Positions 22,975 through 45,063 of a stretch of DNA of 64,000 bases are shown piece by piece (position 1 is the stretch's first letter; each line of letters opens with the position of its first letter). The notes below the pieces were generated by a model. It was not told the origin of the DNA. It did not search any database and worked only from the letters and a program-made list of their open reading frames with translations. The stretch spans positions 7,988 to 71,987 of the forward strand of contig JBKKAZ010000221.1 of the NCBI GenBank assembly GCA_046714435.1, in the 5' to 3' direction. The position numbers and the translations under genes were made by a program. The DNA comes from Casimicrobiaceae bacterium (GTDB lineage: Bacteria; Pseudomonadota; Gammaproteobacteria; Burkholderiales; Casimicrobiaceae).

Positions 22975-25401
22975 TCAGCCGTCGGCAACGACCGGCGTCA
23001 CCACATGGCATTCGCCGGCGATGTCGACTTCGAATTTCGCGGCGCGCAGCATGGCATCGGTAAGCGGGATGTCGCTGCGGGCATAGCCCATCGCGACGGC
23101 ACGGCCCAGCTTGCGACTGTAGCCCGCCGATGTGAGTTCGCCCGCGGCGCGCCCATCCATCAGGATCGGTTCGCCGCCCCACGGGAAGGCGGCGGCATCG
23201 TCGAACGTGAAGCTCAGCAAACGTTTGCTGAGCCCCTTCGCGGCCTGCGCGCGTAGCGCCTCGCGGCCGATGAAATCCGCCGGCTTGTCCAGCCTCGCCG
23301 CGAAACCGATGCCGGCTTCGAGCGGCGTCTCGTCCGGCGACAGCTCGGCGCCCCAGGCGCGACGCCCAGCCTCGATCCGCAATGCGTCGATCGTGTAGTA
23401 CCCGGCGTCGCGCAACCCGTGGGCGGGACCCGCGTCGTGCAGCGCGTCGTAGAGTGTCAGGCACTGCTCGGCGGGGACGTAGAGCTCGAACCCGGGGCCG
23501 CCGACATAGCTCATCCGGGCCGCGCGAACCCGCGCGTAGCCAACGTCGACGTCGCGCGCCGCGGAAAACGCAATCGCCGCGCGCGAAAAGTCGTCGCGCG
23601 ACAGGCTGCCAAGCAGCGCCTCGGCCTTCGGTCCCATGACCGACAGCACCGACCACGCGCCGGTCACGTCGACGAGCGCCGCGTGCTCGTCGACTTCGAC
23701 GTGCCTCTCGATCCAGGCAAAGTCGCGTGTCGCCTGGCCCGATCCGGTGACGATGAAGAATTCACGCGGACCGAGCCGGGTGACCGTGAGATCGCTCTCG
23801 ATTCCGCCGCGCGTGTTCAGCATCGCGGTGTAGACGATCCGGCCAGGTGCGACGTCCATCTCGTTCGCGCAAAGCCGCTGCAGCACGGCGAGCGTGTCGC
23901 GGCCCTTGAGCACGAATTTCGAGAACGAAGTCTGATCGAAGACCACGACATCTTCGCGGCAGGCGCGCTGCTCGTCGAGAACATTCGGCAGCCAGCCCGG
24001 CGTGTCGAGCGTGGCGGGGGGCTCGACCTGGCGCGGCGCCAGGAAATAGTTCGCGCGCTCCCAGTTGAGCTTGGTGCCGAAGACCGCGCCTTTCGCCTTC
24101 AGGCGGTCGTAGAGCGGCGAGCGCCGCAGCGGCCGTACCGTCTGCAATTCCTCGCGTGGCCAGCGCATCGCGTAGTGCAGGCCGAGCGTCTCCACGGTGC
24201 GGTCGGCGAGGTGGTGGCGGTTCACGTGAAAGGGCGCGAAGCGACGCAGGTCGACGTCCCACAAGTCCACCGGCGCCTCACCGTCGGCGACCCATTGCGC
24301 GATCAGCTTGCCTGCGCCGCCGGAATTCGCGATCCCCGCCGAGTTGAAGCCGGCGCAGACGAAGAATCTCCGCAGCCGAGGCGCTTCGCCAAGGATGAAG
24401 TTGCCGTCGAGCGTAAAGCTTTCGGGACCGTTGAGCAGCATTTTCACCGGCGCCGTTTCGAGGCAAGGCGTGCGATGGATCGCGTTGCGCATCAGGATTT
24501 CGAACTGGTCCCAGTCCTCGGGCAGCAGCTGGAACTCGAACCGCGGCGGAATCGGATCGACGCTCCAGGGCTTGGCTTGCGGCTCGAAGCCGCCCATCAC
24601 CAGGCCGCCGACTTCTTCCTTGTAGTAGATGAAGCCGTCGGGGTCGCGGATCACCGGCAGGTCGGGCGTGACGCCTTCGATCCTGTCGGTGACGAGGTAG
24701 AAGTGCTCGGCGGACCACAGCGGCACTTCGACGCCCGCGAGCAGTCCCAGCGCGCGAGCCCATTGGCCCGCGCAATTGACGAGGGCGTCGCAAGCGATGC
24801 TGCCCGTCTCGTCTCCGCGTGCCCAGCTCACGCCGGCTACGGCGCCATCCCGGGTGTCGATCGCGGTGACGCGGACTTCCTCGAAGATCGCAGCACCTCC
24901 ATTGCGGGCGCCCTTGGCGAGTGACATCGTCAGATCGGTCGGGTTCGCCTTGCCGTCACCCGGTATCCACACCGCACCTGCGAGGTCGTCGGTTCGCAGA
25001 ATCGGGGCGATGCGTGCGGCTTCGGCGGGTGAGATGAACTCGAACTCGACGCCGAAGCTCTTCGCGCGAGCCATTTGCCGTTTCATCAGCTTCATCCGCT
25101 CGGGCGTCTTCGCGACATTGAGCGATCCGCATTGCTTCCATCCGGTGGCGAGTCCGGTTTCGCTTTCGAGCGACGCATACAGGTCGATGCCATAACGACT
25201 CATTCGTGTCGCGTTGCGCGTCGCGCGCGTCTGGCCCACCAGTCCGGCGGCGTGCCAGGTCGTGCCGCAGGTCAGTCGCCCCTGTTCGAGCAGCACGACG
25301 TCGCGGATTCCGAGCTTGGTCAGGTGGTAGGCGGTCGAGCAGCCGGCAATGCCGCCGCCGACGACGATGACCCGAGCCTGGGTAGGGAGTGAGTTATTCA
25401 T
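22975..25401 (-). CDS. GcvT-family FAD/folate-dependent N-demethylating oxidoreductase (DMGDH/SARDH-like), copy 1
   Basis: 808 aa. GGGIAG Rossmann fold, GTTWHAAGLVG (covalent-FAD His motif), GPESFTLDG, FDQTSFSK, THF-binding GcvT domain and LRIEAG.R.WG.EL. Confidence 0.88.
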   Translation of the reverse strand: MNNSLPTQARVIVVGGGIAGCSTAYHLTKLGIRDVVLLEQGRLTCGTTWHAAGLVGQTRATRNATRMSRYGIDLYASLESETGLATGWKQCGSLNVAKTPERMKLMKRQMARAKSFGVEFEFISPAEAARIAPILRTDDLAGAVWIPGDGKANPTDLTMSLAKGARNGGAAIFEEVRVTAIDTRDGAVAGVSWARGDETGSIACDALVNCAGQWARALGLLAGVEVPLWSAEHFYLVTDRIEGVTPDLPVIRDPDGFIYYKEEVGGLVMGGFEPQAKPWSVDPIPPRFEFQLLPEDWDQFEILMRNAIHRTPCLETAPVKMLLNGPESFTLDGNFILGEAPRLRRFFVCAGFNSAGIANSGGAGKLIAQWVADGEAPVDLWDVDLRRFAPFHVNRHHLADRTVETLGLHYAMRWPREELQTVRPLRRSPLYDRLKAKGAVFGTKLNWERANYFLAPRQVEPPATLDTPGWLPNVLDEQRACREDVVVFDQTSFSKFVLKGRDTLAVLQRLCANEMDVAPGRIVYTAMLNTRGGIESDLTVTRLGPREFFIVTGSGQATRDFAWIERHVEVDEHAALVDVTGAWSVLSVMGPKAEALLGSLSRDDFSRAAIAFSAARDVDVGYARVRAARMSYVGGPGFELYVPAEQCLTLYDALHDAGPAHGLRDAGYYTIDALRIEAGRRAWGAELSPDETPLEAGIGFAARLDKPADFIGREALRAQAAKGLSKRLLSFTFDDAAAFPWGGEPILMDGRAAGELTSAGYSRKLGRAVAMGYARSDIPLTDAMLRAAKFEVDIAGECHVVTPVVADG

Positions 25402-25417
25402 CGTCACATTGCAATCA

Positions 25418-26269
25418 TCATAGCCGCAGCGCCGCGACCCCGGCGGCGACACCGATCGCTCCCGCGAGCCGCCGCCAGCCGAAACTTTCCTTGAGGAACA
25501 AGGTGCCCATCAGCGCAGCGAACACGACCGACACTTCGCGCAGTGCCGCCACGATGGCGATCGGCGCGAGTGTCATCGCCCACAGCACGATCGCGTAGGC
25601 CGCGATGCTCGCTGATCCGCCCAGCAACCCGCGTCGCCAACGTGGCGCAAGGTAGGCGGCGGCCTGCCGGCCGCGTGTCCATGTCACCCACGCGATGAAC
25701 GGCAGGGCATCGAGGGCCGTCAACCAGACGGCGTACGACCATGGGTTGCCAGCAGCGCGTGCGCCCGCCCCGTCGATCAGCGTGTAGGTCGCGATGATGA
25801 GCGCGTTCGCCAGCGCCCAGCCGGCCGCGGCAAGCGTATGGCGGCCGCTCGCGAACCAGGCGATGGTGATGATGCCCGCCGAGATCAAGGCGATGCCGAG
25901 CAGGGTTTCGAGGCGCAACCGCTCGGACAGGAACACTATGCCGAGCAGCGTCACTATGAGCGGCGCGACGCCGCGCATCAGCGGATAGGCGAACGACAGG
26001 TCGCCGCGGTGGTAGGCGCCTGCCAGCGCGATGTAGTAGGCGAAGTGAACCACCATCGAGGCGAGCACGAACGGCCAGGCGGCCGCCGCCGGCAGCGGGA
26101 TGAACGGCAGCAGCGGCAGGCACACGGCGCACCCGCCGGCGATGATCAGGACGGTGTCGAGCGTCGCGTCGCCGGCCGACGACTTGAGCAGCGCGTTCCA
26201 CAGCGCGTGCAGAAAGCCCGCGCCCAGCACGGCGAGCGTGACGCCGAGGGAGATATCGACGGCCGGCAC
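25418..26269 (-). CDS. EamA/DMT transporter of the phosphonate-associated type
   Basis: AGFLHALWNALLK, AY..GDLSFAYPLMRG.AP and AALREVSVVFAAL. About 10 TM segments. Sits in the phn operon. Confidence 0.82.
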   Translation of the reverse strand: MPAVDISLGVTLAVLGAGFLHALWNALLKSSAGDATLDTVLIIAGGCAVCLPLLPFIPLPAAAAWPFVLASMVVHFAYYIALAGAYHRGDLSFAYPLMRGVAPLIVTLLGIVFLSERLRLETLLGIALISAGIITIAWFASGRHTLAAAGWALANALIIATYTLIDGAGARAAGNPWSYAVWLTALDALPFIAWVTWTRGRQAAAYLAPRWRRGLLGGSASIAAYAIVLWAMTLAPIAIVAALREVSVVFAALMGTLFLKESFGWRRLAGAIGVAAGVAALRL

Positions 26270-26284
26270 CGGCGTGGTCGGGAG

Positions 26285-28006
26285 TCAGACGCTGCGCGAC
26301 GCGCGCTTGGGAAGATCGGCGTCGGGATCCGCCTCGTCCTCGGGCGCGGCGAGCGGCGAACTCTCCAGCGGCGTCATCAGCCGCGTGTGCGCAAGCACGC
26401 CCGCCTCCTCGAGGATCGGATAGGCCACCGAACAAACGTGCGAGTTGATTCGGCGCAGATCGGAGATCAGGTCGAGATGCAGCGACGAGGTTTCAATGCT
26501 TTCGATGGTGTTGCCGGCGAGCCGGACCAGATGAGAATTGGCGTAGGCGCGTTCGAGATCACGCACCAGCACCTTCTGCGCGAGCAGTTCTTGCGCGCTC
26601 TTCAGGTCGCGGTGGAGGAACACGCTGGTCGCAAGCCGCAGATTGGCGACCAGGCGGCCGTGCAGATCCACGATCTCGCCCATGCCGGCGTCGGAGAAAT
26701 TGCGCCCCTTCTCGATCTTCTTGTCCTCGATGTCGGCGAGAATGCGCTCGATGATATCGCCGACCTGTTCGAGGTTGATGGTAAAGGACACGATGTCCGC
26801 CCAGCGGCGGCTCTCGCGCTCGTCGAGGGCGCCGCGCGGCACCTTGGTGAGGTAGAGCTTGACCGCGGTATAGATCTCGTCGACCACGTCGTCCATCTTG
26901 CGCAGGCGATGGGCGAGTGCGCGGTCATTGGTCTGCAGCACGGTCAGCATGCCACGCAGCATCTCGTCGATCACGTCGGCAATGCGAAGCGTTTCACGCG
27001 CGGCGTTGCCGATCGCCAGCGCCGGGGTCTCCAGCGCCGATGGGTCCAGGTGTCGCGGGCGCGCCTGGTTCGCGGCCGGCGGCGGCGAGGGCAGCAATCG
27101 CTCCGCGTAGGCCGCGATGCGGTTGGTAAAGCCCAGCAGGAACAGCGCCAGCACGACATTGAACGCGAGGTGGAACAGAACCACTTCGTGCGCGGGCGAG
27201 ACCTGCGCGCGCTCGACCAGCACGCCGGCGTAGCCGACCAGCGGCATGGCGATCGCGCAGCCGATCAGCTTGAACATGAAGTTGCCGAGCGTGACCCGGC
27301 GCGCCTCCGGCTCGGTGTGAAGCGTCGAGAGCATGCCGAGCAGCCCGCTGCCGAGGTTCGCGCCCAGCACCAGGCCGATCGCGACCGGCAAGCCGATCAG
27401 GTTGAGCGATGCGAAGGTTGCCACCAGCAGCACGACGGCGAGGCTCGAGTAGACGGTGATCGTCACCAGCGCGCCGACCAGCACGTCAAGCATCACGTCT
27501 CCGGTCAGCGAGGCGAACAGCACCTTCACGCCGTCGGTGCCGACGACCGGCTGCGCCGAGGTTCGAATCCATTGCAGCGCGAACAGGATGAGTCCAAGCC
27601 CGATCAAGATCCGGCCGAACTGGCCGGCAGCCGACGCCTGCCAGCGCAGGAACAGCGTGACGCCAGCGATCAGCAATACCGGCGCCAGGAAGCCGAGATC
27701 GAAGGACAGTACCAGCGTGACGATCGCGGTGCCGACATCGGCGCCGAGCATCACCGCCAGCGCGGGCGCAGTCGCAATCAGCCCCTGGCCGGCAAACGCG
27801 GCGACGATCAGCGCGGTCGCGGTACTGCTTTGCAGCAGCCCGGTCACGGCCAGGCCGGCGGCGAACGCGGAGCCGCGCTTCGACACGCTGTGCCTCAACA
27901 GCCGGCGCAGTAAGCCGCCGTACCGGCGCAGGATGCCCTTTCGCACCAGGTGCGTGCCCCAGACCAGCAGCGCGACGCCGGCGAGCAGGTCGAGCAGCAT
28001 TTTCAT
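26285..28006 (-). CDS. Na+/Pi cotransporter family protein with C-terminal PhoU-like domains (YjbB-like)
   Basis: Repeated QSSTAT / YSSLAVVL motifs, GADVGT and GANLGS, and helical PhoU repeats (LRKMDDVVD, LEQVGDIIE). ATGA overlap with pbfA. Confidence 0.88.
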   Translation of the reverse strand: MKMLLDLLAGVALLVWGTHLVRKGILRRYGGLLRRLLRHSVSKRGSAFAAGLAVTGLLQSSTATALIVAAFAGQGLIATAPALAVMLGADVGTAIVTLVLSFDLGFLAPVLLIAGVTLFLRWQASAAGQFGRILIGLGLILFALQWIRTSAQPVVGTDGVKVLFASLTGDVMLDVLVGALVTITVYSSLAVVLLVATFASLNLIGLPVAIGLVLGANLGSGLLGMLSTLHTEPEARRVTLGNFMFKLIGCAIAMPLVGYAGVLVERAQVSPAHEVVLFHLAFNVVLALFLLGFTNRIAAYAERLLPSPPPAANQARPRHLDPSALETPALAIGNAARETLRIADVIDEMLRGMLTVLQTNDRALAHRLRKMDDVVDEIYTAVKLYLTKVPRGALDERESRRWADIVSFTINLEQVGDIIERILADIEDKKIEKGRNFSDAGMGEIVDLHGRLVANLRLATSVFLHRDLKSAQELLAQKVLVRDLERAYANSHLVRLAGNTIESIETSSLHLDLISDLRRINSHVCSVAYPILEEAGVLAHTRLMTPLESSPLAAPEDEADPDADLPKRASRSV

Positions 28007-29367
28007 GCCGCTACGGCTCCGTGGCTGCGCCGCGACACGCTCGCGAGCGCGGCGTCGATGATCTCGAACGCGCGATCGAGCGCCGGCTCGTCGATGATCA
28101 GCGGCGGCGACAGCGTCAGCACGTTGCCCTGGCCGATTTTGAACGACAGTCCGCGCGACAGGCACTCGTACATGGTCTGCTCGGCCTCGTCCCGCGCCGG
28201 TGTGCCGTCGGCACGCGTGAGCTCGATGCCGAGCAGGAGTCCGATGCCGCGCACGTCGCCGATCAGCCGGTGGCGCGCCTTCAGCGCCTGCATCCGTTCC
28301 AGGGCCCGCACGCCGAGACGCCGTGACCGCTCGAGCAGGCGCTCGTCCTCGATGACCTGCAGCGTTGCCAGTGCAGCGGCGCAGCCCACCGAGCTTTTTT
28401 CGTGGGTGTAGTGGCCGAGTGCCAGCTTCGAGGCGACATCGAGGTCCCGGCGGGCGATCAGCGCCGCCATCGGGAACACCGCGCCGCCCAGGCCCTTGCC
28501 GAGCACGACCATGTCAGGCACGACATCGTAGTGCTCGAACGCAAACATCGTGCCGGTGCGCCCCAGCGCGATCGGCACTTCGTCGAAGATCAGCAGCGTG
28601 CCGTGCCGGTCGCAGGCCTTGCGCAGGCAGCGATAATACTCGGGCGGCGGAATCTGGACGTCGGTACAGCGCACCGTTTCCACGATCACCGCCGCGACGT
28701 CTTCCTCCTTGTCGAGCATGTACGCGACATAGTCCGCGCAACGATTATTGCAAACACCGCCGCAGCCAAAGCTGCAACTGCGCGGATCGCATGGCGGCGC
28801 GTGCTCGGCGCCGGGCAGCAACGGCCCGATGCCCTTGCGGAACACCGCTTCGCCGCCGATCGAGATCGCATCCAGGGATGCGCCGTGGAAACTGTCCCAC
28901 ATCGAGATCGTCTTGTGACGGTCGGTGGCAACGCGCGCCAGCTTCAGCGCCATGCCGATCGCGAGCGCGCCCCCCGGCGCGAACAGCACCTTGCCCAGCG
29001 GGTCGGGCGCGAGCAGGGCGAGCCTTTCCGCGAGTTCCACCGCGTGGGCGTTGGTGAAGCGGCGCGGCGAGAACGGCAGCGAGTCGAGCGCGGCCTTGAC
29101 CGCGTTGACGACCTGCGGGTGACGGTAGCCGACCTGGTGGACGTTGTTGCCGTGGAAGTCCATGTAGCGCCGGCCTTCGACGTCGGTGAGCCAGATGCCC
29201 TCGGCTTCGACCAGCGTGTCGAGGCAGGGCGTGGACAGCGACTGGTGCAGGAACGCCGCACGGTCGCGATCGAGCCAGTCACGCGTCGCCGGACCGATGT
29301 TGGCCTTGTCCCAGGCGCGACGCCGCGAGGAGAGGTTGATGTCACCCTCCGCCGCTTCGTTCACCAT
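28003..29367 (-). CDS. pbfA: (R)-1-hydroxy-2-aminoethylphosphonate ammonia-lyase (class III aminotransferase fold)
   Basis: [61 protein letters not shown] and [16 protein letters not shown] are PbfA-specific segments. Confidence 0.88.
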
Positions 29368-30818
29368 GGCAGCGAGTAGGTCTTGGTGTTGGTGAAGCTC
29401 TTCATCGCTTCCTGCACGCCTTCCTTGTAGCCCAGGCCCGAGTCCTTGATGCCGCCGAACGGGGTCAGCTCCAGTCGATAGCCCGGCACTTCGCGGATGT
29501 TAACGGTGCCGACGTTGAGTTCGCTTACCAGCCGCGTGATGTAATCGAGGCGGTTGGTGCATACCGACGACGACAGCCCGTAGTCGGTGCCATTGGCGAT
29601 CCGGATGGCGTCCTCCAGGGTCTTGAAGCGGATGACCGGCGAGACCGGTCCGAAGGTCTCGGTCCTGACCACGTTCATCTGCGGATCGACGTGGTCCAGC
29701 ACGGTGGGCGAGTACACGGCGCCGCGCCGCAGGTTCCCGACCAGCAATTTCGCACCGCGCGCCACCGCGTCGTTGACCCGCGCCTCGAAGCTCATCGCCG
29801 CCGCCTGGTCGATCACCGTACCCATCTCGTTGGCCGGATCCATCGGGTCGCCGTAGGTCCATCGCTCGGTGAGCGCGACCAGCCGCTCGACGAACGCGTC
29901 AGCGACGGACTCCTGCACCAGCATGCGCTTGACCGCCGTGCAGCGCTGGCCCGAGTTTTTGTACGATCCATTCGCGGCCAGCGCCGCCGCCTCGTCAAGG
30001 TCGGCGTCCTCCATGACGATGAGCGGGTCGTTGCCGCCCAGTTCCAGCACCTGGCGCTTGTAGACGGCCTTGCCTGCGATGTACTTGCCGACCGCGACGC
30101 CGCCGGTAAACGTCACCAGGTCGACCGACGGGTCGGTCAGCATCGCATCGGCGATTTCGCGCGGGTCGCCGGTAACCACCGAAAACATCTCCGGCGGCAA
30201 TCCGGCTTCGTAGAGGATGTCCGCGAGCAGCAGCGCCGACAGCGGCGTCTTCTCGGCGGGCTTGAGCACCATCCGGTTGTTGGTCGCGACCGCCGGCGCC
30301 ACCTTGTGCGCGACCTGGTTCAACGGATGATTGAACGGTGTGATGGCACTGATGACGCCCAGCAGCGGCTCGCGCAGCGTGTAGATCTTGCGCGACTTGC
30401 CGTGCGGCGTCAGGTCGCAGGAGAACACCTGTCCGTCGTCGGTCAGAGCGGCGTTGCCGGCGAACACGAACACGTCGCAGGCGCGGCCGACTTCGTAGAG
30501 TGAATCCTTCTTGCTGATCCCGCATTCGGCGGTGATCAGGTCCGAGATGGCATCGGCACGGCTGCGGATCAGTTCCGCGGTTCGCTGGCAGATCCGGTAG
30601 CGGTCGTAGCGACTGAGCTTCGGCTTGTAAGCCTTCGCCACGGCGAACGCATGCTGGATGTCGTCGACGCCGGCCTTCGGCACTGTGCCGACCAACGCGC
30701 CGGTGTACGGATTGTGCACTTCGATGACGCGATCATGGCCCACCTTCACGCCGGCAATGCGCATCTTCTCGCGCAGCACGTGGCCCTGCTTGAGTTCAGC
30801 AAGTGAGTTCATGTGCAA
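29361..30818 (-). CDS. phnY: Phosphonoacetaldehyde dehydrogenase
   Basis: ALDH fold with [45 protein letters not shown] and [25 protein letters not shown]. Adjacent to phnA. Confidence 0.93.
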
Positions 30819-30821
30819 CCC

Positions 30822-32895
<2,074 letters not shown>

Positions 32896-32921
32896 GTTGC
32901 GATTTAACGCGGTTCGGGTGT

Positions 32922-32937
32922 AGATTGTCAACAATCT
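32922..32937. promoter_or_regulatory. Palindromic GntR-type operator in the phnR/ABC divergent region
   Basis: AGATTGT-CA-ACAATCT has perfect 7-bp arms and lies 26 bp upstream of the phnR start. Confidence 0.7.
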
Positions 32938-35328: not shown

Positions 35329-37050
35329 ATGGCCACTCCCGCCGTTGCGCTCCCCCGGGTCGTGGCGCCGGCGGTCCGACCGCGCGTGCACTGGCTCGAC
35401 CGGCTCGCGCAGGGCCTGCTGCTGGTGTGCTGCGCGATCCTGATCGCGTTCCTGCTCGCGCCGATGGCGGCGATCCTGGTCAAGAGCGTGCAGGACAACG
35501 CCGGCAACTTCGTCGGCCTCATGCAGTTCCGCGATTATTTCGCCACCCCGGCGCTGCGCAGTTCGATCTGGAACACGCTGTGGGTGGCCTCGGTGGTGAC
35601 CGCGATCACCGTGCCGCTTGCCTTCATCTACGCCTACGCGCTGACGCGCTCGTGCATGCCGGGCAAGATGGTGTTTCGCGTGATCGCGTTGACGCCGATC
35701 CTGGCGCCTTCGCTGATGGCGGCAATTTCGTTCATCCAGTGGTTCGGCAACCAGGGCGCGCTCAAGGGGCTGCTGGGCGGGGCGTCGGTCTACGGCCCGC
35801 TGGGGATCATCCTGAGTTCGATCTACGCGACCTTTCCCCACGCGCTGATGATCATCCTGACCTCGCTGCTGCTGGCCGATGGCCGGCTCTACGAGGCGGC
35901 GGAATCGCTGCGCACGCCGCGTTGGCGCAAATTCATGACCATCACGCTGCCGGGCGCTCAGTTCGGGCTGGTCAGCGCCACCATGGTGGTGTTTTCGTAC
36001 ACCGTCAGCGATTTCGGCATTCCCAAGGTGATCGGCGGCAATTTCAACGTCCTCGCCGTCGACGTCTTCAAGCAGGTGATCGGCCAGCAGAATTTCAACA
36101 AGGGCGCGGTGGTCGGCCTGATCCTGCTGGTGCCGGTGCTGCTCGCGTTCGTCGTCGACTGGATCATGCAGGGCCGGATCCAGGCCCAGTTTTCGGCGCG
36201 GGCGGTTCCCTACGCGCCCAAGCGCGAACCATGGTTCGACCGGGCCATGCTCGCGTTCTGCGTCGTCGTGGCGCTGCTGCTGCTGGCGGTGCTGGGGATG
36301 GCGGTCTATACGTCGCTCATCAAGTTCTGGCCTTACGACAAGTCGATGAGTCTGCGCCACTACACCTTCGGCCTGGTCGACGCCGGCGTCATCGTGTCGT
36401 TTTTCAACAGCCTCAAGTTGGCGCTGGCGAGCGCGGCTTTCGGCACGATGTTCATCTTCGGCGTCGCCTACCTGCTCGAGAAGACGCGCGGGATGCCGTG
36501 GACCAAGTCCGCAGTGCGCCTGCTGGCGGCGGTGCCGATGGCGGTGCCGGGCATGGTGCTCGGACTGGGCTACATCCTGTTCTTCAACGATCCTGCCAAT
36601 CCGCTGAACGGACTCTACGGCACGATGAGCATTCTGGTGTTGTCGACCGTCGTCCACTACTACACGTCGAGCCACCTGACGGCGGTCACGGCGTTGAAGG
36701 CGCTCGACGACGAATTCGAGGCGGTGTCCGCCTCGCTGAAGGTTCCGTTCTACAAGACCTTCTTTCGGGTGACGGTTCCGGTCTGCCTGCCGGCGATTCT
36801 CGACATCGGGCGCTATATGTTCGTCAACGCGATGGTGACCATCTCCGCGGTGGTGTTCCTGTATGCACCCGGAACGCATCTGGCCTCGATCGCGATCCTC
36901 AATCTGGACGAAGCCGGTGAAATCGGTCCCGCGGCCGCCATGGCCACGCTGATCGTCGCGACCTCGACGACCATTTGCGTGATCTACGCGGTGCTCACGC
37001 GCCTTGTCGTCACCAAGACGCAAGCGTGGCGTGTGCCGACTGTCGGGTGA
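35329..37050 (+). CDS. Aminophosphonate ABC transporter permease (fused double MetI-type domain)
   Basis: Two EAA motifs (LYEAAESL, FEAVSASLK), YALTRSCMPGK and YTSSHLTAVTALK. Confidence 0.9.
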   Translation: MATPAVALPRVVAPAVRPRVHWLDRLAQGLLLVCCAILIAFLLAPMAAILVKSVQDNAGNFVGLMQFRDYFATPALRSSIWNTLWVASVVTAITVPLAFIYAYALTRSCMPGKMVFRVIALTPILAPSLMAAISFIQWFGNQGALKGLLGGASVYGPLGIILSSIYATFPHALMIILTSLLLADGRLYEAAESLRTPRWRKFMTITLPGAQFGLVSATMVVFSYTVSDFGIPKVIGGNFNVLAVDVFKQVIGQQNFNKGAVVGLILLVPVLLAFVVDWIMQGRIQAQFSARAVPYAPKREPWFDRAMLAFCVVVALLLLAVLGMAVYTSLIKFWPYDKSMSLRHYTFGLVDAGVIVSFFNSLKLALASAAFGTMFIFGVAYLLEKTRGMPWTKSAVRLLAAVPMAVPGMVLGLGYILFFNDPANPLNGLYGTMSILVLSTVVHYYTSSHLTAVTALKALDDEFEAVSASLKVPFYKTFFRVTVPVCLPAILDIGRYMFVNAMVTISAVVFLYAPGTHLASIAILNLDEAGEIGPAAAMATLIVATSTTICVIYAVLTRLVVTKTQAWRVPTVG

Positions 37051-37067: not shown

Positions 37068-37176
37068 GTAAACGAGTGAACAAGCGAACAAGCGAACAAG
37101 TGAATGAAAGCGCGCGATGCGTGCGTTGTTCATTTTTTCACCCGTTCACCCGTTCACCCGTTCACCCGTTCACCCA
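37068..37176. repeat. Inverted octamer tandem arrays between the ABC permease and phnW
   Basis: GTAAACGA GTGAACAA GCGAACAA GCGAACAA GTGAATGA (37068-37107), then TTCACCCG x4 + TTCACCCA (37137-37176). Confidence 0.88.
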
Positions 37177-37199
37177 TATACGGCATTCCAGGACGAACC

Positions 37200-38345
37200 A
37201 TGACCCTTCATTCCCGCGATCCGATCCTGCTCACCCCCGGTCCGCTGACGACCTCGCTGCCCACCAAGGCCGCGATGCTCCGCGACTGGGGCTCCTGGGA
37301 CGCGAGCTTCAACGCGGTGACGGCGCGCTTGCGCGCCAAACTCTGCGACGTCATTCACGCGACTGACACCCACGTCTGCGTGCCGATGCAGGGCAGCGGA
37401 ACTTTCTCCGTGGAGGCCGCGATCAATACGCTCGTCCCCCGTCACGGCCACGTGCTGGTGCTGATCAATGGCGCCTACGGCAAGCGGATGGCGAAGCTCA
37501 CCGGGATGATGGGCCGAAAGCTGTCGACGTTCGAGACCGCCGACAGCGTGCCGACAGCGGCAGCCGACGTGAACCGGCTGCTGGCGCAGGACCCGTCGAT
37601 CACCCATGTGGCCCTGGTCCACTGCGAGACGTCGACGGGCATCCTCAATGCGCTGCCGGAAATCGCGGCCGTGGTTGCAGGCCAGGGCAGGCGCCTCGTG
37701 GTCGACGCGATGAGCTCGTTCGGAGCGCTGCCGATCGATGCGCGCAAGACGCCATTCGATGCGCTGGTAGCGGCATCGGGCAAGTGCGTGGAGGGTCCTC
37801 CCGGGATGGGATTCGTGTTCGTGAAAAAGGGCGTGCTCGACCAATGCGCCGGCAATTGCACGTCGCTCGCCCTCGACCTCCACGACCAGTGGGCGTACAT
37901 GGAGAAGACCACCCAGTGGCGTTTCACCCCGCCCACGCATATCGTGGCTGCGCTCGACGCCGCGCTGGACCAATTTGTTGCCGAAGGTGGGCAGCCGGCG
38001 CGCCTGGCGCGCTACACGGCCAACTGCGCGACGCTCGTGCAGGGCATGGCCGAGCTGGGGTTCCGCCCGTTCCTCGAGCCGTCGATCCAGGCGCCGATCA
38101 TCGTCACCTTCCACGCGCCGGCCGATCCGAAATACAACTTCCGCGAGTTCTACGATCGCGTGCGCGACAAGGGCTTCATCCTCTATCCCGGCAAGCTCAC
38201 CGAGGTCGAGACTTTTCGTGTGGGCTGCATCGGCGCGATCGGTCCCGACGAGATGCGCCAGGCGGTGCACGCGGTGCGCGATACGCTCGCGGAGATGGGC
38301 ATCGCGACCGTGGCGCCCGCGTTGGTGCGTCGCGCGGCGGCATAG
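37200..38345 (+). CDS. phnW: 2-aminoethylphosphonate--pyruvate transaminase
   Basis: [69 protein letters not shown] and [10 protein letters not shown]. Confidence 0.96.
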
Positions 38346-38443: not shown

Positions 38444-39358
38444 TCAGGCGACGAACAGCCCGACCGCCACCAGGACCGGCGTCGCGAGATTGACCGCCAC
38501 GTTGCGAGCCATCGCGGGCAGCAGCGCGTCGATGTCGTCTGAATGGCGCAGCGTGTCGCGCGCGGCAGGAATCGCGAGCGCGATAGTCCCCAGGCCCAGC
38601 AGGCACTGCCACGGCAACGCCCCGGCCAGCACGCCTGCCACCAGCGAAACGTACGCAAGGATCAGCAGCACGACGTAGGCGTGTGCCGCGCGCGGGCGGC
38701 CCCAGGCGATCGGCAGGTGGCGGCGCCCGGCGGCACGGTCGGCCTCGACGTCGGGAAACTGATTGAGCAGCAGCAGTGCATTGACAAGGAAGAACGGAAT
38801 CAGCGTCGCCCAGAGCGCGACTTCGTCGATCCTTCCCGTGAGCACGATGTGCGTCCCACCTACCATAATTGGGCCGAAGCCCAGCCCGGGTGCGACGAGG
38901 CAAGGCCAGGGATGGCGCGTGATCCACGCCGTATAGGCGACGACGAGCAGTAAGCCGGCGATGCCGAGCGGCACCAGCGCGGCGCCGCGCAGCACGACCA
39001 GCCCGAGCCCGATGGCCGCGGCGACCACGAATGCCACGACCGCGATCGCCAGCGCGAGCGGCGCCGCGGCCGGATCGGCCGGCAGCACGCCGCTGCCGCC
39101 GGAGAAGGGCGTGCGCTTCGTCTTCAGGTCGAGCCCGCTCCTGAAGTCGAGATACTCGTTCAATGCGTTGACGCTCACGTGCGCAGCGAGCGCGGCGAGG
39201 AGCGAGAGGATTGCGAGCGGCCAGGCGACGCGGCCTTGCGCGTGGAACGCGGTCGCGACTCCGAGCAGCACGCAGGAAAGCGTGAGTGGCAGGAAGGGCA
39301 CGCGCATCGGCCCCATCAGTCGGTGGGCATGATTCATCGGGTCCCTCGGGGTCAGCAC
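38444..39358 (-). CDS. UbiA/MenA-family prenyltransferase
   Basis: MRVPFLPLT, VSVNALNEYLDF..G.D, TPFSGGSG, LLLNQFPDVEAD..AGRRHL and multiple TM segments. Confidence 0.85.
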   Translation of the reverse strand: MLTPRDPMNHAHRLMGPMRVPFLPLTLSCVLLGVATAFHAQGRVAWPLAILSLLAALAAHVSVNALNEYLDFRSGLDLKTKRTPFSGGSGVLPADPAAAPLALAIAVVAFVVAAAIGLGLVVLRGAALVPLGIAGLLLVVAYTAWITRHPWPCLVAPGLGFGPIMVGGTHIVLTGRIDEVALWATLIPFFLVNALLLLNQFPDVEADRAAGRRHLPIAWGRPRAAHAYVVLLILAYVSLVAGVLAGALPWQCLLGLGTIALAIPAARDTLRHSDDIDALLPAMARNVAVNLATPVLVAVGLFVA

Positions 39359-39371: not shown

Positions 39372-40652
39372 CTACGCCACGCGGTTCAGCGTCCGTTTCG
39401 CAGCGCCCGGTCCATCAGCGCGCATCTGCTTCAGATACCAGCGGATGAATGCGTCCACGTTGTATTCCTTCTGCTGCGACAACGGGCCCGGCACGTACCC
39501 GATCGAGTCCACACCCTTCTGCTGCCACTTGCAGATGTCCCAGTCCTGCTCGTTGGTGAGATTCCAGAACGGCAGCAGCTTGTCCAGTGTGTAGTCTTCC
39601 CCTTCCCGGGCGCGCTGGTCGACGAGCCAGTAGCCGCGGACGCGGGTCGTGCGCGGGCCGGCCGGCAGCAACCTTGCCACGACCGCATGATCGCAGCTTG
39701 CGTGCACCCAGAAGTTTGGCATCGAGCGCATCCGCAGCACGCCGACATCGGCGTCCTGGTAGCTGCCCATCAGCGGCGCCACGCGCTGGCCGTCCATCGA
39801 TTCGGTGTCCCAGCCCTCGGTCAGTACCGTGCGGTCCGCCGCGTACCACAGGCCGTGCTCGGGATCGGGGAACGGGGCGAGGCCGCCGCGCTGGTGCGTG
39901 ATGGCGATGCCCTGGGCCGCCCACTTCGATTGCGTGCGTGCCACGGCCTCCGCCAGCTTCGCGCGGATCGCCTCCGACGCGGACGCCTCGTCGTAGACAT
40001 CGAAGTTCGCCTTCACGTACTGCGGATGACAGCGCACGCAGTGGAAACACTCGCGGTTGTTTTCCCAGACCAGCTTCCAGTTGGCCTCGACGGCGTAGTC
40101 GGAGATGTGCGCGATCCTGGCGCGGTCGAAGCCCTGTGGCCGCGCCGCGCCTTCGAAGGTTTCGCGCAGGGCATCGAACGGAGGCGGCGAGGGCGCGAGC
40201 GACACGTAGATCAGCCCGGCGCAGACTTCGGCGTGCAGGGGCCGCAGTCCCAGCTGCGACTTGTCGACGCCGTCGTGCATGCCGTGGCAGGCCACGAGGT
40301 CGCCTTGCCGCGAGTATGTCCAGCTATGATACGGACAGACGATCGCGCGAACGTGCCCGGCTTCCGCGCGGCAAAGCAGCGTTCCGCGATGCCGGCAGAC
40401 GTTGTGAAAGGCACGGACGGTGCCGGAATCGTCACGCATCACCAGGACCGGTGTCGCGTCCACCGAAAAGGTGAGGTAATCGCCCGGATTCGGAATCTCG
40501 AACGCGAACCCGGCGAACAGCCAGCCGCCAAACCAGATCTGCTCGAGTTCCCGCGCGTACAGCGCGTCGGTGTGGTAGAAGGCGCGCGGCATGCCGTGGC
40601 CTTCGCGTCGCGTGGCGAGCAGTGCCTCAAGTTCGGGTGCAAGTGCAGACAT
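39372..40652 (-). CDS. Rieske non-heme iron oxygenase alpha subunit, GbcA/Stc2 (betaine N-demethylase)-like
   Basis: HNVCRHRG...CPYHSWTY Rieske ligands, NWKLVWENNRECFHC..CHP iron site, and C-terminal NEQD..IC..QQKG..S..Y.PGP.S..E..V..F..WY. Confidence 0.85.
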   Translation of the reverse strand: MSALAPELEALLATRREGHGMPRAFYHTDALYARELEQIWFGGWLFAGFAFEIPNPGDYLTFSVDATPVLVMRDDSGTVRAFHNVCRHRGTLLCRAEAGHVRAIVCPYHSWTYSRQGDLVACHGMHDGVDKSQLGLRPLHAEVCAGLIYVSLAPSPPPFDALRETFEGAARPQGFDRARIAHISDYAVEANWKLVWENNRECFHCVRCHPQYVKANFDVYDEASASEAIRAKLAEAVARTQSKWAAQGIAITHQRGGLAPFPDPEHGLWYAADRTVLTEGWDTESMDGQRVAPLMGSYQDADVGVLRMRSMPNFWVHASCDHAVVARLLPAGPRTTRVRGYWLVDQRAREGEDYTLDKLLPFWNLTNEQDWDICKWQQKGVDSIGYVPGPLSQQKEYNVDAFIRWYLKQMRADGPGAAKRTLNRVA

Positions 40653-40730: not shown

Positions 40731-40735
40731 GCTTT

Positions 40736-43162
40736 TCAATCCGACTCCCTGGCAAGTATCGCCTTGCGATCCGGGTCGTACGGCGCTCGGATGTGACGTA
40801 CGGCGGGGTAGCGCACCCCCATCACCTCGACGGCATACTCGGCAGCCAGGGGCTCGTCGGCAGCGATGTAGGCGCACAGCAGGTTGCGGGCCACCGTATA
40901 GCCGTAACCTGCGCTGGTGACGCGCCCCAGCACGCGCTCGCCCGCCAGCACGACTTCGCCGCCGAACATGTTGACTTCGGGGGGCGCCGTGAACCAGGCG
41001 AGTTTCAATTTCGGACCCTCGGCCTTGATCCCGGCCAGAGCAGTACGCGCGAGAAAGTCGCCCTTGTCCAGCGCGACGCAGAAGCCCAGGCCGGCCTGGT
41101 AGGGGTTGTAGTCCGGGGTGATGTCCGATCCCCACACTAGATAGTGCTTCTCCAGGCGCAGACTGTTGATCGCCCGGTATCCCGCATTGGCGATGCCGTA
41201 GCGCTCACCGGCTTGCCACAGGCTTTCGTACAGCCCCAGCGCGTACTCGACCGGAACGTGCAGCTCGTAGCCCAGCTCGCCGAGGTAGGTCACACGCAAC
41301 GCGAGTGCGGGGGTGTAGGCGAGGTCGATCTCGCGCGCACTCATGTAAGGGAAGCTCGCATTGTCGAGCGGGGCGTCGGTGAGTTGCGCCAGCACGTCGC
41401 GCGAGCGCGGCCCGCAGACATTCAGCACCGCCCGCGCCGAGGTGTGTTCGACGATCGCCACACTGCCATCGTCGGGCAGGTGGCGTTCGATGGTCGAGCG
41501 ATCGCGCACGCCCAGCGCGCTGCCGGTGACGAAGTAGAAGCGGTCGTGGCCAAGCCGCGTAATCGTCACGTCGGCCTCGATGCCGCCGCGCTCATTGCAA
41601 AACTGGGTGTAGACGATGGTACCGACCGGGCGGTCCAGGTTGTTCACCGCGAGCTTCTGCAGGAGCGCGAGCGCGCCGGGGCCGCTTACCTCGTACTTGG
41701 AGAACGAACTCATGTCGATCAGGGCTACGCGTTCACGCACGGCGCGATGCTCGGCGCCGGTGGCCTCGAAAGCGGCGGTGCGGTCGAACGAGGGTGTTTC
41801 GATCGCCGCGGTGCCCGCCGGCGCGAACCAGTTCGCTCGCTCCCAGCCGAACTTGTTGCCGAACACCGCGCCCGCAGCCTTCAGCCGCGCGTGCAGCGGG
41901 CTGCGACGGGTGTCGCGTCCGACGTCAGGCTCGTAGCCGGGCCACGCGATGTGATAGTAGCGGCCGTAGCTCTCGACCGCGCGCTCGTACATGAACTTCT
42001 TGACCGAATGCGGCGTCCCGAAACGGCGAACATCGAAGGGCCACAGGTCCATGCCCGGGTCGCCGTCGACGATCCAGTTCGCCATGACCCAGCCGGCGCC
42101 GCCCGAGGCCGCGATGCCCGAGGTGAAGCCGCAGCAAAGGTAGAAATTGTCGAGCTCGGGCGACAGTCCGATGATGGGTTCCCCATCGGCGGAGATCGGT
42201 ATGGGGCCGTTGATGAGCTGTCTGATGCCAACTTCGTTGAGCACCGGAATGCGCGCTGCCGCGGCCTCGGCTAGCGGCGCGAAACGGTCGAAGTCCGACG
42301 GCAGCAACTCGGGTCCGAAGTTGGGACGGATGCCGGCGTCACCCCAGGGCACGGTGTTCGCTTCCCACCCGCCAACGGCGAGCGCGCCCGGCTCCGGCTT
42401 GACGTAGAAATTGGCGTCGGGATCGCGCAATGTCGGCAGGCCGTCGGGAATGCGCGGGGTCTTGTCGGTGACGAAATACTGGTGCTCGACGGCGCACGCT
42501 GCCACGCGCGTGCCGACCATGGCCGCGATATCGCGTCCCCACATGCCGGCCGCATTGATCACGCATTCGGCCTCGATCCTGCCCTGGTCGGTGATCACGC
42601 CGGTGACGCGCCGGCCGCGCTTTTCGAGCGACGTCACGACCACGTTCTGGATGATCGTGACACCCCCGGCGCGGGCACCAGCCGCATAGGCGTTGGTGAG
42701 GCTGGTCGGATCGACGTAGCCATCGCCTGCGATCCATGCCGCCCCGACCACACCGTCGACTTCGAGCAGCGGAAAGCGCTCCTGCGCCTCGCGGGCGGAA
42801 ACGAGTTCGACGTGAAAGCCGAAACCCTTCGCCATCGTCGCCGATCGCTGCAACTCCCGCCAGCGCGCCACCGACGAAGCGAGCCGCAGGCTGCCGACGC
42901 CGTGCCAGCCAGTCGCCTGTCCGGTTTCGGCCTCGAGCCTGGCATAGAGTTCGGCGGAATAGCGCATCAGCCGGGTCAGGTTGCTGCTGCTGCGCAACTG
43001 CCCGACCAGGCCCGCGGCATGCCATGTCGCACCGTGGGTGAGCTGCAATCGCTCCAGCAGGACGACGTCGCGCACGCCGAGCCGGGCGAGGTGGTAGGCG
43101 ATGCTGCAGCCGATGGCGCCGCCGCCGATGATCACGATGCGGCTCGTGCTGGGGACTGCCAT
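40736..43162 (-). CDS. GcvT-family FAD/folate-dependent N-demethylating oxidoreductase (DMGDH/SARDH-like), copy 2
   Basis: 808 aa. GGGAIG, GATWHAAGLVGQLRSS, NGPIPISADG, DMSSFSK and LRLEKHY..WG.DITP. Confidence 0.88.
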   Translation of the reverse strand: MAVPSTSRIVIIGGGAIGCSIAYHLARLGVRDVVLLERLQLTHGATWHAAGLVGQLRSSSNLTRLMRYSAELYARLEAETGQATGWHGVGSLRLASSVARWRELQRSATMAKGFGFHVELVSAREAQERFPLLEVDGVVGAAWIAGDGYVDPTSLTNAYAAGARAGGVTIIQNVVVTSLEKRGRRVTGVITDQGRIEAECVINAAGMWGRDIAAMVGTRVAACAVEHQYFVTDKTPRIPDGLPTLRDPDANFYVKPEPGALAVGGWEANTVPWGDAGIRPNFGPELLPSDFDRFAPLAEAAAARIPVLNEVGIRQLINGPIPISADGEPIIGLSPELDNFYLCCGFTSGIAASGGAGWVMANWIVDGDPGMDLWPFDVRRFGTPHSVKKFMYERAVESYGRYYHIAWPGYEPDVGRDTRRSPLHARLKAAGAVFGNKFGWERANWFAPAGTAAIETPSFDRTAAFEATGAEHRAVRERVALIDMSSFSKYEVSGPGALALLQKLAVNNLDRPVGTIVYTQFCNERGGIEADVTITRLGHDRFYFVTGSALGVRDRSTIERHLPDDGSVAIVEHTSARAVLNVCGPRSRDVLAQLTDAPLDNASFPYMSAREIDLAYTPALALRVTYLGELGYELHVPVEYALGLYESLWQAGERYGIANAGYRAINSLRLEKHYLVWGSDITPDYNPYQAGLGFCVALDKGDFLARTALAGIKAEGPKLKLAWFTAPPEVNMFGGEVVLAGERVLGRVTSAGYGYTVARNLLCAYIAADEPLAAEYAVEVMGVRYPAVRHIRAPYDPDRKAILARESD

Positions 43163-43264
43163 GGTGCAACGCTCGCGTCGATGCTGACCGGGCATTATAA
43201 GGTCGCTTGGTGTCGCGACCCTGCTCGCCGGTTGTCGCAGCGATGCCAGCGAAGTGACGGATCG

Positions 43265-44149
43265 TCAGGCCGCTTCACCGCGCCGAAGCTTTTCGATTCG
43301 CGCCTGCGCGACGCTGTGCATGGGAACGAAGCCATGCCGCAGCAGCCAGTCGGCAATCACCAGGCTAGCGTCGGCCGTCACCACGTCCTCGCCCGTCGCG
43401 GACCCGGCGAGTTCGGCGACCTGGTCTGGCGAAGTGAGTCGGAATTCGGTCACCTCGCCATCCTGATTGGAGGGGACGAAACGGGCCGGCAGCTCGAGAT
43501 CATGGACGTGAATCGTGTCGCGATGCAGGCCGTCGGGCTGTGCGCGTCGGATCTGTACGGCGCCAGCCGCGCGCGCGGTGAGTGCGAGTTCGGCGGGTAG
43601 GCCGGCTTCTTCCCAAGCCTCCTTGACCAGCGTCGCGGCAATGCTCTCCCCCGTGGGGACGCCGCCACCGACCAGATTGTCGAGTTGGCCGGGATCGATG
43701 GCCTTGTCCAGGCTGCGCCGCGCCAACCACATCCGCGTCGCGCCGTCGCGCAGCGTGGTCCCGTTGAGATGGGCGGCGTAGCTTCGGATGCCGAAAAAAC
43801 GGGCGGCGGCGCGCTCGAGCAGGCAAAGCGGCGGGGCATCGAACGTCGCCGCCACCGCGTAGCGCTCATCCCGCCAGCGTGTCAGCGCGCCCTCGGCGGC
43901 AAGTGCCCGCGCGACGTCATCGAGGGCGCGAGTGCGCAAGGCCGGCGTCGTCAACGCAGGTCGGAATCGGACTGCATCCGCGTCGACGCTGAACACGTGG
44001 TCGAAGCGAGCAAGCGCCCGTGCGCGATGGTCATCAATCTCGCCGACGATGTGCCCGTCGACGAGCCAGGGACGAAGCGCCATGACTGGCGGCGCGAGCG
44101 CCTCGGCCAGGCGGTCGACCAGACGGTTTAGAATGCGCTCCGCGATCAT
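43265..44149 (-). CDS. NUDIX hydrolase with N-terminal DUF4743-like domain
   Basis: [16 protein letters not shown]...[24 protein letters not shown] and the Nudix box KEAWEEAG. Confidence 0.85.
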
Positions 44150-44202
44150 CGGGTCATTGTAGAGTTCCCGATCCGAGAGAAGATCGCCTGCCACCGACAT
44201 CC

Positions 44203-45063
44203 ATGCCCGCGCGCCTCATCGACGGCAAGTCCCTCGCCGAACGAACCACCCGGGAACTCGCCGAGCGTGTCAAGGCACGTACGCTCGCGGGCAAGCGGAT
44301 TCCGGGGCTCGCCGTGGTGCTCGTCGGTGACCACGCCGCCTCGCACCTCTACGTGCGCAACAAGCGGCGCACGACGGAAGGCGTGGGCATGCGCTCGTTC
44401 GCTCACGACCTGCCGGCAGAGGTGTCCAACGCGGCGCTGGGGTCCCTGATCGACCATCTGAACGCCGATCCCGACGTGTCCGGCATCCTCGTGCAACTGC
44501 CGCTGCCCAAGCACATCGACGCCGGAGCGGTCGTGGAGCACATCGATCCCGCCAAGGATGTCGACGGCTTCCATCCTTACAACATCGGCCGGCTGGTCTT
44601 GAAGTCACCCACGCTGCGCCCGTGCACGCCCTACGGATGCATGAAGCTGCTGGCGGAGACCGGCGCGGACCTGGTCGGCATGCACGCCGTGGTCATCGGG
44701 CAGTCGAACATCGTCGGCCGGCCGATGGCGCTCGAACTGTTGATGGCCCGCTGCACCGTCACCATTTGCCATTCGGCGACGCGCGACCTGCCGGGTATCG
44801 TGCGCCAGGGCGACATCGTGGTCGCCGGTGTGGGCAAGCCGAAGTTCGTGCCGGGCGACTGGATCAAGCCGGGTGCGATCGTCCTCGATGTCGGCATCAA
44901 TCGCGGTGACGACGGCAAGCTCGTCGGCGACGTCGATTTCGAAGCCGCGCGCGAGCGGGCGGCGTGGATTACGCCGGTGCCGGGCGGGGTCGGCCCGATG
45001 ACGGTCGCGATGCTGTTGTCGAACACGCTTCGCGCTGCGGAATTGCAGGACCCGGCCTCGTAG
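44203..45063 (+). CDS. folD: Methylene-THF dehydrogenase/methenyl-THF cyclohydrolase
   Basis: [41 protein letters not shown] and [16 protein letters not shown]. Confidence 0.97.

Follow-up and report, generated by a model that had tools for sequence, protein, structure and literature searches.

N-methylated derivatives of 2-aminoethylphosphonate (AEP) occur in marine invertebrates, and N-methyl-AEP is not processed by the AEP:pyruvate transaminase PhnW (Zangelmi et al. 2023, PMC10590968). Two ways of using such compounds have been described. The flavoenzymes PbfB, PbfC and PbfD, which sit in phnWX or phnWYA clusters, make N-methylated AEP usable: PbfC and PbfD convert N-methyl-AEP into phosphonoacetaldehyde and methylamine, PbfD1 releases dimethylamine from dimethyl-AEP, and Pbf enzymes can replace PhnW (PMC10590968). 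For trimethyl-AEP, a quaternary amine on which no flavin adenine dinucleotide (FAD) enzyme is known to act, the only described route is that of TmpA and TmpB, two iron-dependent oxygenases which cleave the C–P bond directly to give glycine betaine and phosphate (PMC10590968). Neither this work nor a gene context study from 2025 (PMC12366243) mentions GcvT-domain or Rieske proteins, and our full-text literature searches found no paper describing a folate-linked or dimethylglycine dehydrogenase (DMGDH)-like demethylation route in phosphonate catabolism. Exactly such proteins accompany the AEP genes in the 64-kb window analyzed here (64,000 nucleotides), a piece of contig C221 from a metagenome-assembled genome (MAG) of a Casimicrobiaceae bacterium (3.3 Mb, 305 contigs, 92% complete). 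In this window an AEP gene cluster stands between the genes of two DMGDH-like flavoproteins, which we call DMG1 and DMG2, and DMG2 is followed by a Rieske monooxygenase gene (Table 1).

On balance we favour the view that the locus encodes the hydrolytic AEP pathway extended by betaine-type oxidative N-demethylases, with DMG1 acting last and the Rieske enzyme together with DMG2 forming an optional upstream module. A preliminary description of this DNA had listed the AEP locus (phnR-phnA-phnY-pbfA, an AepX-type ATP-binding cassette (ABC) transporter and phnW) between two DMGDH-like flavoproteins, with a GbcA/Stc2-like Rieske gene and folD on the phnW side, and had suggested that betaine-style demethylases feed PhnW, PhnY and PhnA. 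All of these genes lie where it had placed them, and profile searches recovered the Rieske gene as well as folD. Gene identities were assigned with Pfam domains and with NCBIfam models that have curated equivalog cut-offs; as PhnW, PhnY, PhnA, PbfA and PhnS2 each score above their cut-off, the locus can be counted among those of the hydrolytic AEP pathway. In the route we propose, uptake by PhnS2T2U2 would be followed by PhnW, PhnY and PhnA, with PbfA as a side entry. DMG1 would oxidise the N-methyl group of N-methyl-AEP, and perhaps also of N,N-dimethyl-AEP, to give AEP and would hand the one-carbon unit to tetrahydrofolate as 5,10-methylene-tetrahydrofolate, after which PhnW would transaminate the AEP, and PhnY and PhnA would yield acetate and phosphate. 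Where the upstream module is present, the Rieske enzyme would take the first methyl group off trimethyl-AEP as formaldehyde, DMG2 would convert dimethyl- to monomethyl-AEP, and DMG1 would finish the sequence. As electron partners one would expect a reductase for the Rieske enzyme and electron transfer flavoprotein or oxygen for the flavoproteins. Such a route would have the same starting substrate as TmpA/TmpB (PMC10590968), but it would demethylate first and leave cleavage of the C–P bond to PhnA. Its substrates, the order of its steps and the use of folate in vivo are what we infer here.

The part of this proposal that concerns DMG1 is carried by its position. From phnR to DMG1 the minus-strand genes stand close together: the stop of phnR and the GTG start of phnA at 32143 overlap as GTGA, the pbfA start overlaps the phnY stop (ATGGTGA), the pbfA stop and the Na/Pi cotransporter gene are joined by an ATGA overlap, and gaps of only 13 and 16 nt separate the Na/Pi stop from EamA and EamA from DMG1. 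Given this packing, DMG1 is almost certainly co-transcribed with phnA-phnY. The genes for the Nudix protein, DMG2, the Rieske enzyme and a MenA-like protein also follow each other on one strand, with gaps of 70–100, 83 and 13 nt; the earlier caveat that only the first flavoprotein copy is operonic with the phn genes holds for this window. A scan for promoter and terminator consensus sequences gave no more sites than in shuffled controls.

The same arrangement is found throughout the close relatives. When genomes representing single species were scanned, 80 loci with a DMG1 gene (73–81% protein identity) were recovered, the closest relatives being Casimicrobiaceae/Burkholderiales MAGs, and the order phnR-phnA-phnY-(pbfA)-NaPi-EamA-DMG1 is present in every one of these 80 loci that has enough upstream flank. 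About half of the relatives' operons that keep DMG1 lack pbfA, and the phnW side is rearranged as well: in four loci without Rieske and DMG2 genes (L018, L026, L035 and L043) phnW directly abuts Nudix and folD, while in L049 the Rieske-DMG2 pair adjoins phnR. The linkage of DMG1 to the phn operon persists despite both kinds of change. Twelve genera of the family were sampled evenly, for a total of 121 genomes: PhnA and a DMGDH-like protein are encoded together in 79 of them, the DMGDH-like protein alone in three, PhnA alone in seven and neither in 32, and genomes with and without them are found inside single genera. The two genes are 2.9–7.4 kb apart in 63 of the 79 genomes, with contig ends splitting most of the rest. 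Inside the family, gains and losses of DMG1 coincide with those of phnA.

Beyond the family, DMG1 and phn genes are genuinely but not universally associated. Among 400 genomes across the class the top DMGDH-like matches were at most 51% identical to DMG1, and most had no phn neighbours. Starting from PhnA instead, we retrieved 19 PhnA loci out of 400 genomes of the phylum, and in three of them (G662, G624 and G592) a DMG1-like gene with 55–58% identity lies inside the phn cluster. The order is DeoR-DMG1-EamA-phnW-phnA-phnY-phnS2T2U2-pbfA-NaPi in G662 (L131) and DMG1-LysR-NaPi-phnW-phnA-phnY-pbfA in the two Mesorhizobium genomes G624 (Mesorhizobium sp. B4-1-4) and G592 (L133/L134). Relatives 79–94% identical to the G624 protein are encoded in Mesorhizobium ciceri, Sinorhizobium meliloti, S. 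medicae, Ensifer adhaerens, Shinella, Aminobacter and others. In S. meliloti GCA_033714755.1 (L220) the order is DeoR-DMG1like, LysR-NaPi/PhoU-phnW-phnA-phnY-AepX-type ABC, and in Shinella zoogloeoides (L222) it is phnW-phnA-phnY-ABC-AraC-DeoR-DMG1like; a DeoR-type regulator precedes the DMG1-like gene in S. meliloti, G662 and Shinella. For an organism with one or two such genes in a 4-Mb genome, we estimate the chance of adjacency within a 20-kb window at about 1% per genome.

In a maximum likelihood tree of the flavoproteins (quick search, LG+G4) the phn-linked genes of Rhizobiales, which belong to another class, and the Casimicrobiaceae DMG1 form one clade (SH-aLRT 95). Human DMGDH and the dimethylglycine oxidase (DMGO) of Arthrobacter fall outside both the DMG1 and the DMG2 clade, and human DMGDH groups with other bacterial sequences. 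A separate DMGDH-like clade is located 31 bp downstream of phnW in G319/G152, from a gammaproteobacterial genus, and a further one (L183) lies beside phnY-phnA-pbfA, with no phnW seen there. Thus, DMGDH-like genes appear to have joined phn clusters several times. The preliminary description had suggested looking for GcvT-family genes near phn clusters in other genomes and building trees; the co-occurrence is seen in the family and in Rhizobiales, and the trees separate the DMG clades from DMGDH and DMGO but give only a weakly supported backbone for the Rieske proteins. Some 80 species carry DMG1 in the operon, its gains and losses go along with those of phnA, and members of the same clade stand beside phnWAY in Rhizobiales; these gene contexts argue strongly for a functional tie of DMG1 to AEP catabolism.

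Both flavoproteins match human DMGDH over the whole length (E = 3e-144 for DMG1 and 3e-156 for DMG2), are 42% identical to each other and show the DAO - FAO_M - GCV_T - GCV_T_C architecture. They have this four-domain architecture in common with human DMGDH (5L46), rat DMGDH (4PAA) and Arthrobacter DMGO (1PJ5), and they also resemble sarcosine dehydrogenase and 4-methylaminobutanoate oxidase (MABO) in it. In the shape of its substrate, CH3-NH-(CH2)n-acid, MABO offers the nearest parallel. The histidine that binds FAD covalently (DMGO His48; TTWHAAG) and the catalytic dyad DMGO His225/Tyr259 (EH(F/Q)Y, (I/F)Y) are conserved in 63 of 63 aligned sequences, and the equivalent of DMGO Asp552, which we take to be the key folate-site residue, is an Asp in both flavoproteins and, with few exceptions, throughout their clades. 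With all of these intact, the proteins are more in keeping with functional folate-dependent N-demethylases than with simple amine oxidases, and by analogy to DMGDH and DMGO the expected chemistry would be oxidation of an N-methyl group followed by C1 transfer to tetrahydrofolate. Unlike in DMGDH, the context is one of phosphonates rather than of choline and betaine, and the proposed substrate is a phosphonate, not a carboxylate. DMG1 and DMG2 reach no NCBIfam equivalog and, in the tree with DMGDH and DMGO, are not orthologues of a characterised dimethylglycine or sarcosine enzyme.

A further difference is found near the P-x-D-G motif of DMG1. Two residues before it DMG1 has Trp145, where human DMGDH has Tyr and DMGO His, and just after the DG follows Lys151, which is common to the DMG1 and L183 clades; the two residues are encoded at about 24949-24969 of the window (minus strand). 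At this position Trp occupies each of the 23 alignment rows with a phn or PhnS2 linkage compared to six of 23 unlinked rows, and it is common to all four phn-associated DMGDH-like clades but rare elsewhere; the nearest relatives of the G319 protein have Tyr or His there. Trp145 and Lys151 are possible phosphonate-binding determinants.

The second flavoprotein occurs in a different setting. DMG2 represents a distinct clade of which each member is Rieske-adjacent, and the two genes are neighbours wherever an orthologous locus extends far enough to tell. A DMG2 orthologue is present in 11 of the 121 family genomes (about 10%), all 11 of which also have a DMG1-type gene. The division of labour suggested above agrees with a wide distribution of DMG1 that is independent of the Rieske gene, with the constant company of a Rieske gene for DMG2, and with the DMG1-type gene kept in all genomes that have DMG2. 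The Rieske-DMG2 pair adjoins phnW in the window as well as in G446, G490, G471 and L049. In G453, G408, G443 and the metagenome loci L156, L158 and L164 it stands apart from the phn operon, beside a paralogous transporter (53–60% identity), an arrangement apparently also present in L157 and L162, where contig ends cut the loci; the two binding proteins of these paralogues that we tested, from L102 and L107, score 445–447 bits against the PhnS2 cut-off of 393. For a comparison of the two paralogous transporters, no structure with a bound ligand was found among near relatives of PhnS2. In G431, G496 and G498 the module adjoins maeB with no transporter in view. In a more distant metagenomic lineage (L199; Rieske 55%, DMG 56% identity) the order Rieske-DMG-phnA-ADH-PhnD-type ABC-phnY runs on one strand, divergent from phnS2T2U2-phnW, which places the Rieske-DMG pair inside a phosphonate operon. 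As the pair is fixed and is found next to phnW, next to another PhnS2-type transporter or, in L199, within the phnA-phnY operon, there is moderate support from gene context for the Rieske-DMG2 module serving the PhnW-PhnY-PhnA route. The ADH gene of L199 (L199:14833-15945) encodes a zinc alcohol dehydrogenase that scores 295 bits with TIGR03366, a model named 'putative phosphonate catabolism associated alcohol dehydrogenase' with a cut-off of 328.

The Rieske protein has a Rieske [2Fe-2S] and a mononuclear-iron domain, and the ligands of both metal sites (Cys-x-His...Cys-x-x-His and His-x4-His) are kept, as CrHrg...CpyHsw and ecfHcvrcHp in the alignment to 3N0Q and to the stachydrine demethylase Stc2 (3VCA). 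These two are its nearest structures (268 and 254 bits; CntA 98 bits), and the best-matching characterised enzymes, GbcA and Stc2, both demethylate quaternary ammonium compounds. A long branch separates the window's Rieske clade from Stc2/3N0Q, and the GbcA model NF058607, with a cut-off of 670 bits, is not reached by the window protein (365 bits) or the L199 protein (402 bits). Unlike GbcA, the protein has no GbcB-type reductase encoded next to it, and phosphonate transporters and phn genes are the neighbours. The Rieske tree, with its weak backbone and many short contigs, does not recover monophyly of the phn-linked Rieske proteins either way. Rieske relatives at 53–58% identity are also paired with DMG-like genes where no phn genes are near (L175-L177, L194, L216 and L217), suggesting that the pair is a general demethylation cassette of which only a subset serves phosphonates.

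It is at this point that an ordinary role in the degradation of glycine betaine, dimethylglycine and sarcosine, or of another carboxylate betaine, has to be considered, with the genes merely located near phn genes and at most consuming glycine betaine made by TmpA/TmpB. The enzyme set equals that of the betaine pathway, the genes are the only ones of their kind in the genome, and many related Rieske-DMG pairs have no phn genes nearby. An MttB-family gene also lies beside the module in L107, and the known MttB-family members that are not of the pyrrolysine type demethylate quaternary amines. This MttB-superfamily gene (L107:11516-13354, in G408; PF06253 769 bits, under the trimethylamine equivalog cut-off) is located between DMG2-Rieske and the PhnS2-type transporter paralogue, and there is probably another one at L110:11266-12987. 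However, a carboxylate substrate would not explain why DMG1 sits in the phn operon of about 80 species and comes and goes with phnA; the Rieske protein is far under the GbcA cut-off, neither DMG clade groups with human DMGDH, and the transporters on the module side are of the PhnS2 or PhnD type and not of the OpuAC or BCCT type. The preliminary description had noticed no TmpA/TmpB set, and its observation can be extended, as no such pair (a TauD/BBOX-like hydroxylase and an HD-domain oxygenase) was found genome-wide, although at 92% completeness this does not prove its absence. Three TauD-family matches are present in the genome, none of them on the window's contig and one a longer open reading frame among sulfur-oxidation (dsr-like) genes. 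Since the whole assembly has just two DMGDH-like genes and one GbcA-like Rieske gene, besides one separate gcvT and one folD, the arrangement of the locus is not a by-product of many paralogues. We regard the carboxylate reading as improbable overall; such a role is unlikely for DMG1 and possible for some maeB-adjacent Rieske-DMG2 copies.

Several points weigh against the demethylation route that we favour. The Fisher test for the co-occurrence of PhnA and the DMGDH-like protein in the family (p = 4e-19) is uncorrected for phylogeny, and outside the family a DMGDH-like gene lies within 10 kb in just three of about 20 PhnA-bearing genera sampled. In the good assemblies G431, G496, G408 and G443 the Rieske-DMG2 pair is unlinked from the phn operon, and it is often maeB-adjacent. 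No reductase gene was detected near the Rieske gene in the window or among the Pfam-scanned neighbours in L105, L109, L104, L107, L102 and L199. As proof of shared specificity the Trp145 signature had to be rejected, as, with relatedness taken into account, it represents two to three independent contrasts for which a sign test is not significant. Around the DMG1-clade copies of G410 and G420, Ugp-type genes are present but no phn gene is seen within 10 kb, and the S. meliloti gene also adjoins what looks by its Pfam domains like a taurine-utilisation cluster (tauR-tauABC-tauXY-xsc-tauZ-pta), so that DeoR and the DMG1-like gene stand between the LysR-NaPi-phnWAY cluster and this gene set (L220 1-12478). 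Finally, PbfC and PbfD, which are FAD enzymes of phn clusters, attack the ethyl-side C–N bond and release methylamine with no demethylation (PMC10590968).

This last point leads to the alternative that DMG1 and DMG2 likewise oxidise AEP or N-methyl-AEP at the ethyl side, giving phosphonoacetaldehyde and methylamine or dimethylamine, with the GcvT module idle or scavenging. The only phn-cluster FAD enzymes characterised so far work in this way, PbfD1 even on dimethyl-AEP (PMC10590968), and DMG1 has the DAO domain (PF01266) in common with PbfC and PbfD. In contrast to DMG1 and DMG2, which are about 810 aa long and include GcvT, the Pbf enzymes are described just as PF01266 proteins, and no folate domain is mentioned for them (PMC10590968). 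An idle module is difficult to reconcile with a full GcvT module and a folate-site Asp conserved in every clade, and the characterised enzymes of the same architecture, DMGDH and DMGO, pass a methyl-derived C1 unit to folate. Moreover, most phn-linked loci have phnW next to the DMG-like gene (none was seen in L183), while enzymes of the Pbf type are able to stand in for PhnW. Ethyl-side oxidation thus seems rather unlikely to us.

Some neighbouring genes hint at other N-methylated phosphorus or sulfur compounds as substrates, such as N-methylated 1-hydroxy-AEP (feeding PbfA), phosphocholine or N-methyl-phosphoethanolamine, or N-methyltaurine. Besides the Ugp-type genes beside the G410 cluster and the taurine-like cluster flanking the S. 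meliloti gene, the presence of pbfA in the window's operon would fit, and so would PDB relatives of PhnS2 that bind phosphate esters (AfuA 4R72 and P5PA 6WCE). Yet about half of the operons with DMG1 do without pbfA, and the taurine-like and Ugp neighbours each belong to a single lineage, while phnW, phnA and phnY are common neighbours across classes; we judge this alternative unlikely. With the folate-linked demethylation of methylated AEP still the preferred reading, one may go further and assume a complete betaine-style pathway, in which the Rieske enzyme acts on trimethyl-AEP, followed by DMG2 and DMG1, and in which the clades were recruited to phn clusters several times independently, each gaining the same Trp as a determinant of phosphonate specificity. 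To this fuller version we lend only tentative credence.

In the G410 genome mentioned above, one cluster (L112, G410:C27, 8800-20000) combines a DMG2-like gene, an apparently broken Rieske gene, a Nudix gene and a DMG1-clade gene. The Rieske gene is split into two high-scoring segment pairs and matches the GbcA model just over positions 22–257; the cluster adjoins UgpC/UgpE-type organophosphate transporter genes, and phnA is on another contig.

While the preliminary description was borne out strongly for DMG1 and moderately for the Rieske-DMG2 pair, its inclusion of folD in the route is not supported. A dedicated role of folD was rejected, since the genome has no other copy and the gene keeps its place next to Nudix and phnW in relatives without Rieske and DMG2, so that its position carries no evidential weight. 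It looks like a housekeeping neighbour within a conserved backbone Nudix-folD-ALDH-FeADH, and FolD would oxidise the methylene-tetrahydrofolate from demethylation in any case. The Nudix/DUF4743 gene is probably part of the same chromosomal backbone; it repeatedly adjoins DMGDH-like or Rieske genes (L112, L113, L171 and L172) and also phnW-folD in relatives that lack them. The MenA/UbiA-like gene was likewise rejected as a part of the module, as in G446 and G490 no such gene was detected between the Rieske gene and phnW, which in G490 are directly adjacent, and in the window it looks like a local insertion. Together with the Na/Pi-PhoU and EamA/DMT genes, these Nudix and MenA/UbiA-like genes had not been named before. 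The Na/Pi-PhoU fusion and the EamA/DMT permease recur in phnWYA clusters of two classes whether a DMGDH-like gene is present or not (the loci include L131, L133-L138, L117 and L220), and they appear to be general accessories of phn clusters, perhaps for phosphate export or for taking up a phosphonate. Cells that use AEP as their source of nitrogen are known to export phosphate (PMC8316502).

One more peculiarity of the operon is its phnA-phnY spacer of about 100 nt (30820-30925, minus strand), in which seven heptamers (nnTTCAT) face three inverted copies (ATGAAnn). The array can be folded into a long hairpin (-45.6 kcal/mol, z = -3.5); it is absent from all 50 of 50 relatives, in which the phnA-phnY gap usually measures 0–36 nt.

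Table 1: Genes of the AEP locus and its flanks, with positions in the window and the models on which each assignment is based.
Feature	Position	Strand	Assignment and remarks
DMG1, FAD + GcvT-domain amine demethylase (putative), 808 aa	22975..25401	-	DAO+FAO_M+GCV_T+GCV_T_C; last gene of the phn operon
EamA/DMT membrane protein (permease)	25418..26269	-	Pfam EamA; TIGR03340 phn_DUF6 ('phosphonate utilization associated' family) 167 bits, under cut-off 288
Na/Pi cotransporter fused to PhoU domains	26285..28006	-	Pfam Na_Pi_cotrans+PhoU
pbfA	28003..29367	-	NF049939, 675 bits vs cut-off 525
phnY, phosphonoacetaldehyde dehydrogenase	29361..30812	-	TIGR03250, 856 bits vs cut-off 636
phnA, phosphonoacetate hydrolase	30920..32143	-	TIGR02335, 612 bits vs cut-off 408
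phnR, GntR/FCD regulator, first gene of the minus-strand operon	32140..33186	-	Pfam GntR+FCD; true start probably downstream of 33186
phnS2 (AepX-type) substrate-binding protein	33150..34166 (start approximate)	+	TIGR03261, 529 bits vs cut-off 393
ABC transporter ATPase (PhnT2-type)	34238..35311	+	Pfam ABC_tran+TOBE_2
ABC transporter permease (PhnU2-type)	35329..37050	+	Pfam BPD_transp_1, two stretches
phnW, AEP:pyruvate transaminase	37104..38345	+	NF010006, 576 bits vs cut-off 296
MenA/UbiA-like prenyltransferase gene, between phnW and the Rieske gene	38444..39358	-	
Rieske non-haem-iron monooxygenase, GbcA/Stc2 kind	39372..40652	-	Pfam Rieske+Ring_hydroxyl_A; GbcA model 365 bits
DMG2, second FAD + GcvT-domain demethylase (putative)	40736..43195	-	DAO+FAO_M+GCV_T+GCV_T_C
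Nudix/DUF4743 gene, upstream of DMG2, between DMG2 and folD	43265..44200	-	Pfam
folD	44203..45063	+	Pfam

If the proposed route is true, it would be a third use of methylated AEP besides that by PbfB, PbfC and PbfD, which set methylamine free from monomethyl-AEP (dimethylamine from dimethyl-AEP), and that by TmpA/TmpB. Its Rieske enzyme and its DMGDH-type enzymes would each be the first of their kind to act on phosphonates. The PhnWAY pathway was originally elucidated in S. meliloti, and since a DMG1-like gene is present there, the route is directly testable in this organism. A function would then be at hand for the genes annotated as 'GcvT family protein' beside phnWAY in Sinorhizobium meliloti, Mesorhizobium, Ensifer and Shinella, and the bacteria that use this route would save the methyl carbon of their substrates as C1 units.

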